Assembly: GCA_001823055.1 (NCBI GenBank)
Contig: MHTH01000006.1
Span: 1-42,263, forward strand
Reading direction: 5' to 3'
Length of the DNA stretch: 42,263 nt
DNA from: Candidatus Vogelbacteria bacterium RIFOXYB1_FULL_42_16
GTDB lineage: Bacteria > Patescibacteriota > Minisyncoccia > Phycocordibacterales > XYD1-FULL-46-19
Below, in pieces: positions 27,049 to 31,927 of this stretch (positions are counted from its first letter, which is position 1; every line of letters begins with the position of its first letter). Position numbers and translations under genes: made by a program. The notes under the pieces are model-generated. The model saw only the letters and a program-made list of their open reading frames with translations. It had not been told where the DNA came from and made no database searches.

Positions 27049-27972
27049 ATGTCTGACAATAAACCAACTTTTGTTTTTTTTGGCACCGATGAATTCAGTG
27101 TCCAAGTTCTAGAAACATTAAGAGAGGACAACCTAATCCCGTCTTTGATTATTACCGTACCCGACAAACCTAAAGGCCGAAAAATGGTTTTGACTCCACC
27201 GCCAGTTAAAACTTGGGCGGAAGCGAACGAAATTGAAGTAATCCAACCAGCCTCGCTAACTCACTTGGAGGTGAAACCTCCAAGTGAGTTAATCGAAAAG
27301 CTAAAAGTTTACCCCGTAGCGAAAAATTTAAATTTTTCTGGTACTGGGGCTATAACATATAACCTTTTCCTCGTAGCCTCTTACGGTCAGATTATTCCTC
27401 GAGCGATTTTGGATCTACCTAAAAACGACACCCTAAATATCCATCCCTCGCTCCTGCCAAAATATCGCGGTCCATCACCACTCGAAACAGTGATCCTAAA
27501 TGGTGACCGAGGAACCGGCGTCACGATTATCAAACTTGATGCGGAAATGGATCACGGACCGATTATTGCTCAAGAAAAATTTTCTTTAGACGATAAGAAT
27601 GATTTTATTAGCCTGCGCGATAAAAGCGCCAGACTGGGCGCGGAAATGTTAATAAAAATTTTACCGGCTTATCTAGCTGGAGAAATCGTCCCGCAAGAAC
27701 AAGATCATTCCCAAGCCACGCTGACCAAGAAATTCACTAAAGAAGATGGCTACTTAAATCCGAATGATACCGATTTGGTTAATTGGCGTAAAATTCTCGC
27801 TCTCAATCCTTGGCCCGGCGCTTATATTTTAATTGAAAAAGATGACCTTAAAATCCGTTTGGCGGTCAAATCAGCTCATCTTGATGACCAAGGTCAATTA
27901 ATCTACGATCGGGTAGTGCCAGCCGGAAAAAAAGAGATGTCTTGGTCTGATTTTCAGCACGGGTTAAAATAA
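27049..27972 (+). CDS. fmt: Methionyl-tRNA formyltransferase (with an in-frame palindromic insert)
   Basis: FFGTDEF, PDKPKGR, NIHPSLLPKYRGPSP, MDHGPI, PWPGAY. Confidence 0.95.
   Translation: MSDNKPTFVFFGTDEFSVQVLETLREDNLIPSLIITVPDKPKGRKMVLTPPPVKTWAEANEIEVIQPASLTHLEVKPPSELIEKLKVYPVAKNLNFSGTGAITYNLFLVASYGQIIPRAILDLPKNDTLNIHPSLLPKYRGPSPLETVILNGDRGTGVTIIKLDAEMDHGPIIAQEKFSLDDKNDFISLRDKSARLGAEMLIKILPAYLAGEIVPQEQDHSQATLTKKFTKEDGYLNPNDTDLVNWRKILALNPWPGAYILIEKDDLKIRLAVKSAHLDDQGQLIYDRVVPAGKKEMSWSDFQHGLK
27257..27291. repeat. Perfect 16-bp hairpin inside fmt (AGGT-GAA-ACCT core)
   Basis: TAACTCACTTGGAGGT-GAA-ACCTCCAAGTGAGTTA. Confidence 0.75.
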
Positions 27973-28237
27973 GACCAAAACTTGTCGAAGGCACACCTTT
28001 TTAGGGGGTCGTCCTCCTTCGCTTCCGCTACGGCGGGACAAGTGAGGTTGTTGAACTGATGTGCGAGATTGGATGTCGCACAAAATTTGTTAAAAAAACT
28101 TACTTAATTTCAAAATGGTTGGGCTTGGGTCTGGGTTTTGAAATTAAGTAAGTTTTTAAACAAATTTATTTCGTAGTGTAAGAAAAATCCGTACCCTAAA
28201 AAGGTGGTGCCGAGTAAAAAGTTTTGGTCTTATTTTA
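27965..28237. repeat. Structured intergenic repeat, copy 2 (expanded)
   Basis: 19-bp outer IR (27965-27983/28219-28237), the same CTTTTTAGGGGGTC...AAAATCCGTACCCTAAAAAG core as copy 1, plus internal hairpins. Confidence 0.75.
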
Positions 28238-28255
28238 GTCCGCTCTTCCTCTCGC

Positions 28256-28950: not shown

Positions 28951-29763
28951 TTACAACGGGCTCTTGATATTTTTCAGCGCCGGATTGGTCACATGAGTGT
29001 AAATCTGCGTCGTACGGATATTGGCGTGACCCAAGAGTTCCTGAACGAAACGAATATCAGTGCCATTTTCCAATAAATGCGTAGCGAATGAATGCCGTAA
29101 ACTATGAAAAGTGGCTTCTTTATTGACGCTAGACAGTTTCAAAGCTCTTTCAAAAACCATTTGCGCTGTCCGTTCGGTTAGCTTGCCACCTCGTTCGCTC
29201 TCAAAAACGAAATCATCACCCGATTTGCCGGCAATTAAATTTCTCAAATTATTGACTAGCTTGTCCGGCACCAAAGTTATTCGGTCTTTCTTGCCCTTAG
29301 CTTCTTTAAGATGGATAGTAAGTTCTTCTAAATTCAAGTCCCTGACTTTCAAATTGATGGCTTCGCTTACTCGCAAACCGGCGCCGTAAGACAATGTTAA
29401 TAGTAAAAGGTGTTTGGCATTTTTAACTGTTGCAAGTAAATCCTGTATTTCCTGACGACTCAAGACAACTGGTAACGATTTATTGCGTTTGGCAAATCTG
29501 ATATTAAATGTCTCCGATGATCTGATTACATCATGATAAAAATATTTGATAGCATTGAGATAGAGGTTAATGGTTTGCGATGAGTAATCCTTGTCTTGTT
29601 TTGATAATAAATATTCTCTAATATTGCCTTGATCCAATTTGTCTAAATTTGATTGTTTATAATTAAAATAATCCTCCAAGCATGATAAATAAGCATCGAT
29701 TGTCTTAGGGCTGTAATTGCGTATTTTTAGCTCCGTTTTTACTCGTTCTAATAATTGTTGCAT
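28951..29763 (-). CDS. Tyrosine recombinase (short integron-integrase-like / Xer-like)
   Basis: RNYSPKTIDAY N-terminal SAM-like domain; catalytic R (GLRVSE), K (KGKKDR), HxxR (HSLRH), H (LGH), Y (TTQIYTHV); 270 aa. Confidence 0.93.
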   Translation of the reverse strand: MQQLLERVKTELKIRNYSPKTIDAYLSCLEDYFNYKQSNLDKLDQGNIREYLLSKQDKDYSSQTINLYLNAIKYFYHDVIRSSETFNIRFAKRNKSLPVVLSRQEIQDLLATVKNAKHLLLLTLSYGAGLRVSEAINLKVRDLNLEELTIHLKEAKGKKDRITLVPDKLVNNLRNLIAGKSGDDFVFESERGGKLTERTAQMVFERALKLSSVNKEATFHSLRHSFATHLLENGTDIRFVQELLGHANIRTTQIYTHVTNPALKNIKSPL

Positions 29764-29787
29764 GTATTTAGGGTTTATTGCTATAAT
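29758..29787 (+). promoter_or_regulatory. Pc-like cassette promoter
   Basis: TTGCAT (29758-29763)-N18-TATAAT (29782-29787) with a TGn extension, pointing into the cassette array. Confidence 0.6.
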
Positions 29788-29836
29788 TAGGTCATGGACA
29801 ATTTGTCTGCCATTCGTCTTTCATACGTCTATTAGT

Positions 29837-29845
29837 ATTATATCA
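29837..29845 (-). promoter_or_regulatory. Pint-like promoter of the recombinase
   Basis: TGATATAAT (extended -10) on the minus strand, about 75 nt upstream of the recombinase ATG. Confidence 0.55.
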
Positions 29846-29854
29846 CAAAACTAT

Positions 29855-29875
29855 TCGCATAGAAACTAGTTGGAC
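29855..29875 (+). other. attI-like primary recombination site
   Basis: TCGCATA-GAAACTA-GTTGGAC: the GTTRRRY core is complementary to GTCCAAC at the end of cassette 1; TCGCATA matches the right arm of attC2; no upstream hairpin arm. Confidence 0.7.
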
Positions 29876-29940
29876 GAAATAGCAAAAACCTCTTTACTTT
29901 TTATTAAAATTTTGACAGTTTATTATTAATCATACAAAAT

Positions 29941-30363
29941 ATGAAGACACCAGACCAAATGGTACCTTATCTAAAGGAGAAAAAAATGGACATCGAGAAA
30001 AAAGAGTTGCACCAGCCAGTCCTTCATATTTTAAAGGAAACGGCAGAAAAGTTTCGCTCTTTAGACCAGGAAGCAGATGTAGCCCTTCAAAGCAAGCGTG
30101 ACACTGCAACCTATAAGCAAAAACTTGAAGAACGAGCGAAACTTTTAATCAATCTTCCAAATCTTTTGTCGGGTAAATTGGAAGACCTTGATTCAGAAGT
30201 TAAGCAAAGAATTGTGCGTGATATTGAATGGTTTGCAACAAGTGCAAATGAAGCGTTGGAGAATAATAATGGTTTTGCGCTTGGAGTACTGCTCACGCAC
30301 CAAGGTAGTAAAAATACCGACAAAAACGATTTGGAAGAATTGATTGCCTTGCTTGAAAAATAA
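29941..30363 (+). CDS. Cassette 1 ORF: helical hypothetical protein
   Basis: Single ORF filling the cassette 29869-30597; charged helical composition; no recognised family. Confidence 0.75.
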   Translation: MKTPDQMVPYLKEKKMDIEKKELHQPVLHILKETAEKFRSLDQEADVALQSKRDTATYKQKLEERAKLLINLPNLLSGKLEDLDSEVKQRIVRDIEWFATSANEALENNNGFALGVLLTHQGSKNTDKNDLEELIALLEK

Positions 30364-30408
30364 ACTGTCAAAATTTCTTTTTTAATCGGAGTCGGCTTTT
30401 GCTACATC

Positions 30409-30604
30409 GTCCAACACGGGATAAGCGGTTCAGGATTGGCACTCATTTTATAAAATAATGTGTGTGCCAATCCTTCTCCCAAATTCGTTTCCCTTTTATT
30501 TCAAATACATCAATGATTAGTGTGTTTAAAATAATTGAGAAGTGTATATCAAGTTTAACAAATTAAATCGGGAAACGAACTTCGCTTATCCCGATACGTT
30601 ATAT
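30409..30604 (+). other. attC-like site 1 (196 nt)
   Basis: GTCCAAC-A-CGGGATAAGCG ... CGCTTATCCCG-ATAC-GTTATAT, with two internal hairpins. Confidence 0.8.
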
Positions 30605-30679
30605 GAAATAATGAAAAATTCTTTTTGCCCTACTGGGCAAAATTAATCGGGACAAATTTATTTTTAAAATTAAAATATT

Positions 30680-31345
30680 ATGAAAAAAATCGCAACTATC
30701 GTTTTAGTTATTGTGCTTTTAATCGTAGCTGGCACATTATCATTTTTAATATTTAACAAGCAAAAACCAAATAACCAAATTTCTTTAACTGGTATTGATT
30801 CATCACAAATCAGGCCGGAAATAAAAATTTATCTTGATGAATTATACGACAGCGAAATTACATCAATAGAACACACAACCGATAGTATAGAGGAAAGCAC
30901 AAGAAGGTTTCCTGATAATCCTAAAATTTTTGAAGCTGGCAGATTTAAAGTTGTTCTTAATAATGACGGCGATAAAAAAGTAATGATTTTTCAAACCGAA
31001 GAAAAAGTAGGCCATATCGCGCCAGTTATTCCCGGTAAAACTGATGTTGGCGGCTATGTTGAAATTCAAAGAAATCCAGAAAGTGACAATTCCGAGGATA
31101 TAGCGCATACGACCCAAAGTATTGAAAATCAAGATAAATTAAACAATATTGCTGATTTAAAACTAAATGAATTTGAACTGGATTATTTAATTAGAATATT
31201 GTACAAAAAGTTTGAAAAACCATTGACTGATGAGCAGGCGCAAAATTTAAATGAAATTAAAGATTATGCCCTGGCGATTAAATTTAGTGGCAGGGATGGC
31301 ATAACCCAATATCATAATAGTTTGGTTAATGAATTAAAAAAATAA
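30680..31345 (+). CDS. Cassette 2 ORF: N-terminally anchored exported protein
   Basis: MKK + hydrophobic helix then an acidic soluble domain; fills cassette 30598-31488. Confidence 0.75.
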   Translation: MKKIATIVLVIVLLIVAGTLSFLIFNKQKPNNQISLTGIDSSQIRPEIKIYLDELYDSEITSIEHTTDSIEESTRRFPDNPKIFEAGRFKVVLNNDGDKKVMIFQTEEKVGHIAPVIPGKTDVGGYVEIQRNPESDNSEDIAHTTQSIENQDKLNNIADLKLNEFELDYLIRILYKKFEKPLTDEQAQNLNEIKDYALAIKFSGRDGITQYHNSLVNELKK

Positions 31346-31399
31346 ATTTGTCCCGATGAATAATTCGCTAATCGCGAATTAAGAATTTTTCATTACATC

Positions 31400-31495
31400 A
31401 TATAACAGCGTGTATGCGGTTCGTGCTTGGCTCCGCCAAATACTCGCCCATATCCGCCTAAATCGGCGGACATCGCATACACGCGAACGTTAGGC
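31400..31495 (+). other. attC-like site 2 (96 nt)
   Basis: ATATAAC-A-GCGTGTATGCG ... CGCATACACGC-GAAC-GTTAGGC. Confidence 0.82.
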
Positions 31496-31528
31496 GAAAT
31501 TTAAATCCTCACTTAACCCATTCAATTT

Positions 31529-31834
31529 ATGAAAAAATATTTACTAATAGCATTTATCTTTTCCGCATTAGTATTGTTGATAGTTTTCGTATTTTTTAAG
31601 AAGGACTCTTTATCAAAAAAATCTGCCACGCCACTAAATAAAGAAATTCTTATTGAGTCATGTCACCAAACGGGTGGTACTTGGAAAGAAGAATCTAATC
31701 CTTGCGAACCTACTTGCGACTATCAACGTAAAAAATTAAAAGGTGAGAAGCTCACTTGTATTGCTCTGGTAGTGCCTAATTGCGAATGCGAAAAAGATAA
31801 ATGCTGGAATGGATCAAGTTGTGAGCCACTTTAA
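31529..31834 (+). CDS. Cassette 3 ORF: membrane-anchored eight-cysteine protein
   Basis: MKK + TM, then C..GGTW...C...C...C...C.C...CW...C (8 Cys). Confidence 0.78.
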   Translation: MKKYLLIAFIFSALVLLIVFVFFKKDSLSKKSATPLNKEILIESCHQTGGTWKEESNPCEPTCDYQRKKLKGEKLTCIALVVPNCECEKDKCWNGSSCEPL

Positions 31835-31849
31835 CCGGATTTAAACATC

Positions 31850-31927
31850 GCCTAACACGGCATATACGGTTTCATTACATTACACCCATATTGCTATTGC
31901 AACATCGTATATGCCGAAACGTTAACT
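31850..31927 (+). other. attC-like site 3 (78 nt)
   Basis: GCCTAAC-A-CGGCATATACG ... CGTATATGCCG-AAAC-GTTAACT. Confidence 0.8.

Follow-up and report, generated by a model that had tools for sequence, protein, structure and literature searches.

A probable integron-type cassette platform in Patescibacteria, with a tyrosine recombinase that lacks the IntI additional domain

The stretch of DNA considered here, which we refer to as the window, comprises positions 1 to 42,263 of contig MHTH01000006.1 (assembly GCA_001823055.1), from the genome of an ultra-small groundwater organism, Candidatus Vogelbacteria bacterium RIFOXYB1_FULL_42_16 (611 kb, 23 contigs, 94.65% complete), whose relatives are metagenome-assembled genomes (MAGs) of the Patescibacteria, or candidate phyla radiation (CPR). 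Between positions 28951 and 31927 lies a minus-strand gene for a 270-residue tyrosine recombinase, followed by a 106-nt spacer and by three plus-strand open reading frames (ORFs) encoding 140, 221 and 101 aa. An earlier, sequence-only reading had described this region as a full integron layout, with a divergent recombinase, an attI-like site and three single-ORF cassettes, and all of these elements are indeed present in the sequence. The features of the region are as follows (R1 is the covariance model of the attC sites described below; Pc stands for the cassette promoter; the slash in the attI core marks a putative crossover).

28951..29763, minus strand: 270-aa tyrosine recombinase of the XerA/IntI-sister type (profiles, alignment, AlphaFold2 model, Foldseek)
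29779..29787, plus strand: candidate Pc, an extended -10-like box TGCTATAAT directed toward the cassettes (proposed from the sequence by eye)
29810..29880, plus strand: attI-like region (motif conserved across loci)
29813-29827, plus strand: TTCG-containing repeat upstream in the attI-like region (sequence)
29854-29880, plus strand: attI core TTCGCATAGAAACTA/GTTGGACGAAAT, with the putative crossover between G29869 and T29870
29870..30598, plus strand: cassette 1, with ORF 29941-30363 (140 aa, no family; ORF calls, Pfam)
30409..30604, plus strand: attC1, 196 nt, GTCCAAC-A-CGGGATAAGCG ... CGCTTATCCCG-ATAC-GTTATAT (R1 56.9 bits)
30599..31489, plus strand: cassette 2, with ORF 30680-31345 (221 aa, N-terminal membrane helix, no family; ORF calls, Pfam)
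31400..31495, plus strand: attC2, 96 nt, ATATAAC-A-GCGTGTATGCG ... CGCATACACGC-GAAC-GTTAGGC (R1 99.6 bits)
31490..31921, plus strand: cassette 3, with ORF 31529-31834 (101 aa, N-terminal hydrophobic segment, Cys-rich; ORF calls, Pfam)
31850..31927, plus strand: attC3, the distal array end, 78 nt, GCCTAAC-A-CGGCATATACG ... CGTATATGCCG-AAAC-GTTAACT (R1 78.5 bits)

Each ORF is followed by an imperfect palindrome, and the three palindromes share the grammar nnnnAAC-A-(11 nt)...(11 nt complementary)-nnAC-GTTnnnn; attC2 carries CTCGCCCATAT between its two inner hairpins. The last R' box, GTTAACT (31921-31927), terminates the array ahead of a terminator-like hairpin behind the convergent SIMPL gene. 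Moreover, the cores at the two ends of each cassette are exact reverse complements: GTTGGAC (29869-29875) and GTCCAAC (30409-30415) for cassette 1, GTTATAT (30598-30604) and ATATAAC (31400-31406) for cassette 2, and GTTAGGC (31489-31495) and GCCTAAC (31850-31856) for cassette 3. The complementarity claimed earlier thus stands for all three pairs; the first core begins at 29869 and not, as had been given, at 29870. A Pfam search of the window proteins assigned no family to any of the three cassette ORFs, and a comparison with Rfam gave no family match anywhere in the window, the attC sites included. For the cassette 2 protein, just 31 homologous clusters exist among 5.8 billion proteins (54-68% identity), with homologues in MAGs labelled Berkelbacteria, Falkowbacteria, Elusimicrobia and Omnitrophota, four phyla in all.

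Domain searches identified PF00589 (E 1.8e-43) and PF13495, a SAM-like N-domain (E 3.5e-14), in the recombinase. The catalytic residues R131, K156, H220, R223, H246 and Y255 are all present and are invariant across 36 relatives. IntI proteins possess an additional domain, located between the beta-hairpin and patch III and containing the I2 helix, that serves to define and find integron integrases and is held necessary for recombination of folded attC sites. The claim that the 270-aa protein is without this insertion is borne out by alignment with IntI1 of plasmid R46, relative to which a block of 42 residues is missing; the same block is missing from relatives in CPR and Bacteroidota. When the recombinase is aligned with VchIntIA (2a3v), residues 3-178 correspond to 4-182 and residues 194-270 to 241-317, with VchIntIA residues 183-240 standing opposite recombinase residues 179-193, and relatives skip positions ~182-236 of the TIGR02249 profile. 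The recombinase itself falls short of the TIGR02249 cut-off (265 bits), with 210 bits spread over two stretches, as had been anticipated for IntI profiles, and given the missing domain IntegronFinder would probably overlook it. Its scores against the XerC and XerD profiles (~190 bits) are far under their cut-offs, and it narrowly passes the archaeal XerA profile NF040815 (224.6 bits, cut-off 220). An AlphaFold2 model (predicted local distance difference test, pLDDT, 87.3) has the two-domain fold of tyrosine recombinases and found VchIntIA as its best PDB match in Foldseek (2a3v_A, E 2e-18, TMq 0.74), with XerA second; VchIntIA is also the best solved-structure match by sequence. The C-terminus reads ...KSPL, and an ...SPL tail is common to IntI1 and VchIntIA and absent from the ordinary Xer of the same genome.

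To relate the palindromes to the enzyme we used R1, which was built from 11 attC sites and was searched at a threshold of E <= 1 on both strands of the window and 80 loci (32 close loci and 48 loci of ordinary Xer homologues; 875 kb). R1 gave 32 matches, 11 of them its own seeds, and all 32 lie upstream of, and on the opposite strand to, recombinase homologues; they come from the window and from 14/32 close loci, and there were no matches in the 48 loci of ordinary Xer homologues. Thus the same site grammar is found upstream of homologues, which is where the sequence-only reading had suggested looking for arrays. Of the ten CPR loci whose upstream sequence exceeds 3 kb, nine hold at least one attC site. 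Contig ends truncate five matches, and in 20/32 close loci, as opposed to 1/48 Xer loci, the contig breaks off within the gene or within 1 kb upstream of it, as would be expected of variable, repeat-punctuated arrays. Among 151 genomes of the class, attC sites were found in 22 and the enzyme in 18, with both in 11 where 2.6 would be expected (Fisher p = 8e-7, although related genomes are not independent).

An array larger than that of the window, on contig G096:C17, has six attC sites and ORFs that are all on the attC strand, one or two per cassette, with cargo that includes small enzymes. An exact block duplication occurs at two places in this array (locus L212, 3250-3560 and 4638-4948); in this block, a complete attC stands between ~45 nt from the end of one cassette and ~110 nt of the following one, and because the block spans both neighbours it is uninformative as to which attC half travels with which ORF. 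Genome G029, of the same class, has eight attC matches over four contigs (C2, C3, C7 and C8) and a recombinase copy with an in-frame TAA, and its system may be decaying or dispersed.

We next consider the structure of the sites, for which 74 matches, 69 of them distinct, were aligned. In the L stem, each of the 11 pairs has changed on both sides; 92.2% of L-stem cells are paired, compared with 72.9% in shuffles and 29-37% with the partner slid, and the covariation score is 0.476 compared with 0.135. Single-strand folds of five sites, on both strands, are 2.9-6.5 standard deviations under those of shuffles (z -2.9 to -6.5), and the bottom strand is more stable than the top by 1.5-4.9 kcal/mol in 5/5 sites. 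Folds and alignments show a three-way junction, in which the L stem is followed by GGTTC, a first inner hairpin, an unpaired conserved CTCnCCCAWATT, a further hairpin (TTGC...GCAA; enlarged where the site is long) and AACWTC before L'. In the R box, AAC is paired with GTT. Most L stems are perfect 11-mers, with three unpaired bases on the L'-R' arm as the sole regular asymmetry. In classical attC sites, the R''-L'' arm bears extrahelical bases and the central spacer is unpaired. The present sites do not follow this pattern, and differ from classical ones in more than the earlier reading saw: they have an 11-bp L stem and three unpaired L'-R' bases where classical sites have extrahelical R''-L'' bases, and two inner hairpins with conserved linkers where classical sites have a free variable loop.

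Circular entry cut at G/TT makes a prediction about cassette ends, namely that a cassette start should be complementary to the inverse core at its own end and not to the R'' box of the preceding attC. We tested this with 50 of the 74 matches, leaving out loci with a single match and loci overlapping another; nine further matches were skipped as they had no GTT or AAC at the expected place (several had ATT or GCT). For 22 cassettes, the four variable core positions were complementary at a mean of 3.14/4, and 12/22 were perfect, whereas the two boxes of one attC (41 sites) were complementary at a mean of 1.88/4, and 2/41 were perfect. In roughly half of the cassettes, 14-22 of the 30 positions that follow the core are complementary as well, and the rest are at chance level. 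In cassette 2 of the window the figure is 22 of the 30 positions past the 7-nt core, and the ends of cassette 1 form, by eye, a long inverted repeat of ~55 nt with mismatches. In this the cassettes are unlike those of classical integrons, as their end complementarity extends well past the R box. (Within the first ~60 nt past attI, loci L004 and L015 contain very short ORF-less units with complementary start and end cores, for example GTTATGCAAAAC...TTTTTGCATAAC, which look like empty cassettes.) The genes flanking the array and the three cassette proteins do not recur in L001-L032, apart from fmt, which lies beside the integrase in L010 and L012.

The attI-like site is conserved as well. The motif AAC[GTC]AGTT occurs exactly once, 56-165 nt upstream of the integrase start, in 21/23 loci, against a background rate of 0.013 per 230 nt. 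Its context is ...TTCGyATAnAAAC-GA-GTT, and locus sequences diverge directly after GTT. Integrons are recognised in part by an adjacent attI, and the conserved motif AAC[GTC]A/GTT appears to provide one, with its slash as the putative insertion site. TCGyATA also opens the L' box of attC sites and is repeated, by eye, 40-60 nt further upstream in many loci. The site attI1 carries extra integrase-binding repeats, and the upstream TCGyATA repeat recalls these. As for the candidate promoter, TATAAT boxes like TGCTATAAT are found at the same place in L001, L002, L027 and L032, and a TTGACA-17-CAAAAT sequence before the ORF of cassette 1 is a consensus match only. A consensus promoter scan did not report the box at 29779-29787.

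Strain variation was examined in public metagenomes. The window or part of it is held by 15 runs from six studies, four of which we compared, all as Logan contigs. Two contigs, of 1446 nt (run X12) and 581 nt (run X14), match the right flank from 31919 rightward, and leftward of this position, which is two bases before the last G/TT, they continue for 84 and 199 nt, respectively, with sequence unlike the window. Unitigs of run X11 break at 31918 and 31947, and a contig of the same run matches 29782-30611, ending just past the attC1 R' box, and then runs 63 nt off the window. (No contig covers cassettes 2 and 3 in X12 and X14, or cassette 1 in X14, although the flanks have cover there, and this was not counted as evidence.) Variable cassette content among relatives had been proposed as a check on the integron reading, and contigs of near-identical strains do leave the window sequence exactly at R' boxes. 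That the strains share flanks and depart at R' boxes speaks for an exchange point at R' rather than at R''.

The same cassette platform could be worked differently, by a XerA-like enzyme that acts, like Xer at dif, on double-stranded sites. In that case the cassettes would resemble the pdif modules of Acinetobacter plasmids, in which gene modules bracketed by inverted sites are moved by a Xer-type enzyme without the IntI domain. The long inverted repeats that bracket many of the present cassettes recall the inverted sites of such modules; in addition, the recombinase is without the domain that reads extrahelical bases in IntI, it passes the XerA profile, and the sites hold more conserved sequence than classical attC sites do (the ATA core, TCG and GAAAT). 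However, the L stem varies in sequence yet keeps its pairing at 11/11 positions, which fits a folded substrate and not a duplex half-site read by a protein; both strands fold well relative to shuffles; and no 11-6-11 inverted core is visible by eye at attI. Moreover, pdif sites are XerC/XerD duplexes of 28 bp that have no covarying hairpin and are served by the housekeeping Xer proteins of the host, whereas the sites described here are structured and have a dedicated enzyme encoded alongside. Recombination of duplex sites therefore seems to us an improbable account of the array.

Instead, we think it likely that the locus is a chromosomal integron-type cassette platform of the Patescibacteria that is run by an insertion-less recombinase on folded attC sites and attI. 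From the patterns described above we infer cassette recombination itself, the adjacent recombinase as its catalyst and single-stranded folded sites as its substrate. In the mechanism that we propose, the 270-aa recombinase would capture and excise circular single-ORF cassettes. It would bind the TCGyATA-containing attI and the folded attC, strand exchange would occur at or next to the G/TT of the R' box, and circular cassettes would be inserted at attI and excised between neighbouring attC sites. The three-base bulge, the conserved unpaired linkers and the longer L stem would probably replace recognition through extrahelical bases and the I2 helix. Note that because the bulge is on the arm opposite to that of the classical extrahelical bases, the recombinogenic strand may differ.

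Several observations weigh against an integron-type platform of this kind. The alignment from which covariation was measured was fitted to the structure of the model and so leans toward pairing (by eye, many different stem sequences agree with covariation of the L stem). Locus L016, with 3.2 kb of upstream sequence, has no R1 match, and in the genomes of the class 11 of the 22 that bear attC sites are without the enzyme and 7 of the 18 that bear the enzyme are without attC sites, which may be an assembly effect of fragmented MAGs. The promoter scan lent no support to Pc, with five promoter-like sites compared with 11.6 expected. The Logan contigs contained no circle junction and no deleted-cassette joint, and rare forms are undetectable in such contigs. 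Finally, the additional domain is experimentally necessary for IntI activity (Messier and Roy 2001, as cited in PMC9668308) and is absent from the recombinase, so that a mechanism involving single-stranded attC needs another mode of recognition.

The likeness of the recombinase to a solved integron integrase, together with the ...SPL tail that it has in common with IntI, could indicate a decayed canonical integron, in which case the recombinase would be an IntI with an internal deletion and no activity, beside a fossil array. The size and uniformity of the family argue otherwise. A protein search with the recombinase recovered at least 7736 proteins at E <= 1e-20 among 8000 candidates scored; the length is 270 or 271 aa in 104 of the 120 best clusters (63-100% identity; manual count), and the catalytic residues, as described above, are invariant. 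(In databases, several members are named "site-specific tyrosine recombinase/integron integrase" by NCBI and some "XerD" by JGI.) Among GTDB representative genomes, MAGs labelled as many CPR phyla hold homologues of 50-78% identity, and weaker homologues (38-52% best-segment identity) come from one MAG of the Pacearchaeota and one of the Bacteroidota. Moreover, canonical IntI above the TIGR02249 cut-off was found in 0/301 Patescibacteria genomes; the corresponding counts for two phyla represented by other MAGs were 78/251 and 90/251.

A phylogeny of 83 proteins bears on the same question. The tree was inferred with IQ-TREE after the insertion columns had been removed by a 50% fill filter, and quick trees agree with it; XerA was sampled from DPANN archaea only. 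A search with IntI1 as the query gave only close relatives of IntI1, and diverse IntIs were therefore drawn from the genome profile searches. Bacterial Xer proteins stand apart from all else at 100/100, and the ordinary Xer of the source genome falls in a CPR clade within them. Canonical IntI is monophyletic (100/100) on a long stem, and the recombinase family lies outside it: the CPR family groups with DPANN XerA-like proteins at 93/83, and the two together form the sister group of IntI (95/84). Below IntI, the CPR family and the DPANN XerA-like proteins branch two Bacteroidota proteins without the insertion. With the root placed on Xer, a single gain of the domain on the IntI stem would explain this pattern. 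The view that the locus represents a distinct integron class is upheld by these results, with the refinement that its Xer-like enzyme is not a generic XerC/D: the family forms a clade with IntI and the DPANN XerA-like proteins. The decayed-integron explanation is largely refuted by the uniform family, its position in the tree and the lack of IntI in 301 genomes, and we give it very little credence.

A further alternative concerns the role of the enzyme. Here the recombinase would be a chromosome-dimer resolvase (XerA/Xer), and the hairpins would be unrelated intergenic repeats or terminators, as might be suspected from the narrow pass of NF040815 and from the location of the hairpins after ORFs. 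A housekeeping XerA should be near-universal in its lineage and act at dif. The recombinase (E <= 1e-40) is present in 18/151 genomes of the class, a patchy, accessory distribution, whereas homologues of a second, ordinary Xer, which in the source genome is encoded on contig 7, are present in 128/151, nearly always as one per genome. Moreover, R1 found the sites only next to this enzyme, in a single orientation; conservation of the attI motif and complementarity of the cassette ends point the same way. A housekeeping role is largely refuted by the distribution, and we regard this explanation as highly unlikely.

A bolder version of the integron reading, to which we give slightly less than an even chance, is that these loci belong to a functional integron lineage whose recombinase never had the IntI domain. 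This lineage would be sister to canonical IntI, allied with archaeal XerA and shared by CPR and DPANN, and would read the three-way junction of its attC sites in a manner unlike that of IntI. If so, canonical integrons would be a derived branch in which the domain was gained once, and many attC arrays of uncultivated lineages that are considered to be without IntI (attC-site clusters without an integron integrase, CALINs) would have an integrase after all. Independently of this bolder version, a large, conserved family that lacks the domain but is tied to attI and attC arrays has consequences of its own. Because an insertion-less sister group now stands beside XerA, the origin of integrons becomes directly testable. 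The system would also be a natural experiment in how a tyrosine recombinase selects and recombines structured DNA without the I2 helix, and for ultra-small symbionts with genomes of ~0.6 Mb it would offer a dedicated route of gene gain and loss. Current surveys would count too few integrons in the Patescibacteria and probably also in DPANN archaea, both of which are very numerous in groundwater, and such systems may form a large branch, so far hidden, among ultra-small bacteria and archaea.

With respect to known systems, the array resembles classical integrons (class 1 mobile integrons and Vibrio chromosomal integrons) in several respects. The recombinase gene is divergent from the array and has attI beside it, the single-ORF cassettes share one orientation, and attC forms an imperfect palindrome of variable length (here 78-196 nt) whose boxes read ...AAC and GTT.... 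In both, the inverse core at the 3' end of a cassette is matched by a complementary 5' end, and the arrays break assemblies. It is unlike them in having a recombinase without the ~42-aa additional domain and outside the IntI clade. With archaeal XerA/dif resolution (PDB 4a8e, 5hxy) the enzyme has in common its size, its insertion-less domain layout and its pass of the XerA profile, in addition to its grouping with DPANN XerA-like proteins at 93/83; unlike archaeal XerA, the CPR enzyme is patchy, accessory and located beside cassette arrays, and a separate Xer does the housekeeping.

Two published surveys are relevant here. Ghaly et al. 2022 (PMC9668308) described archaeal integron arrays, including in Nanoarchaeota/DPANN, most of them without a detectable IntI (539 attC sites and six IntIs in 75 archaeal genomes), and reported that archaeal IntIs carry the IntI-specific additional domain. 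The present arrays are like those in belonging to uncultivated lineages, and a DPANN genome (G996) has an R1-type attC by a XerA-like gene; they are unlike them in that the recombinase is without the additional domain. Smyshlyaev et al. 2021 (PMC8138268) defined Xer-related "Cand" recombinases that are specific to candidate phyla and possibly substitute for Xer, as well as an "integron-like" subgroup among simple tyrosine recombinases, and called the integron insertion "not fully conserved"; in the available text, unlike here, no cassette arrays, attC or attI are described for these subgroups. We found no CPR integrons or arrays with an insertion-less integrase in the literature searched, although the supplements of PMC9668308 and PMC8138268 might list some. 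We regard the system as a real integron variant, in which recombination is presumed from the patterns above, and we found no description of it in that literature.

Outside the CPR, several loci are of interest in their own right. XerA-profile proteins are present in 90/121 genomes of the phylum of the Pacearchaeota MAG, and in many of these genomes extra copies lie a few hundred bases from a contig start. In the DPANN genome mentioned above, an attC of the CPR/R1 type (locus L211, 3779-3876; contig G996:C8) is divergent from the XerA-like gene, with another 840 nt before the end of the contig; either the system is shared across the two domains, or the contig was binned wrongly. Crude palindrome scans around the Persicobacter plasmid gene (L144) and at the Pacearchaeota loci L029, L030, L146 and L149 revealed no convincing arrays. 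In the Bacteroidota MAG, locus L031 (6001-10160) encodes an insertion-less IntI-like recombinase; behind it, on the strand of its gene, come GTTAGTAG (~6933) and four attC sites of classical appearance, whose cassettes have complementary starts and ends. Judged from its sequence, this locus is an integron with a short integrase outside the CPR, in a "same-strand" layout.

In the window, the region is flanked on the left by the housekeeping genes fmt, hpf and DUF167 and on the right by SIMPL, an ORF for a 396-aa membrane protein, and enolase. Between fmt and hpf (27960-28242) there is a nested palindromic element of ~284 bp with four inverted-repeat pairs, for which Rfam returned no family match. 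The centre of the element has a summed contig depth of 280-616x in 3/4 metagenome runs, and its flanks ~8x. One X14 contig joins 27972 to 28257 and skips 284 nt. The element looks like an insertion polymorphism of the kind produced by miniature inverted-repeat transposable elements (MITE-like).

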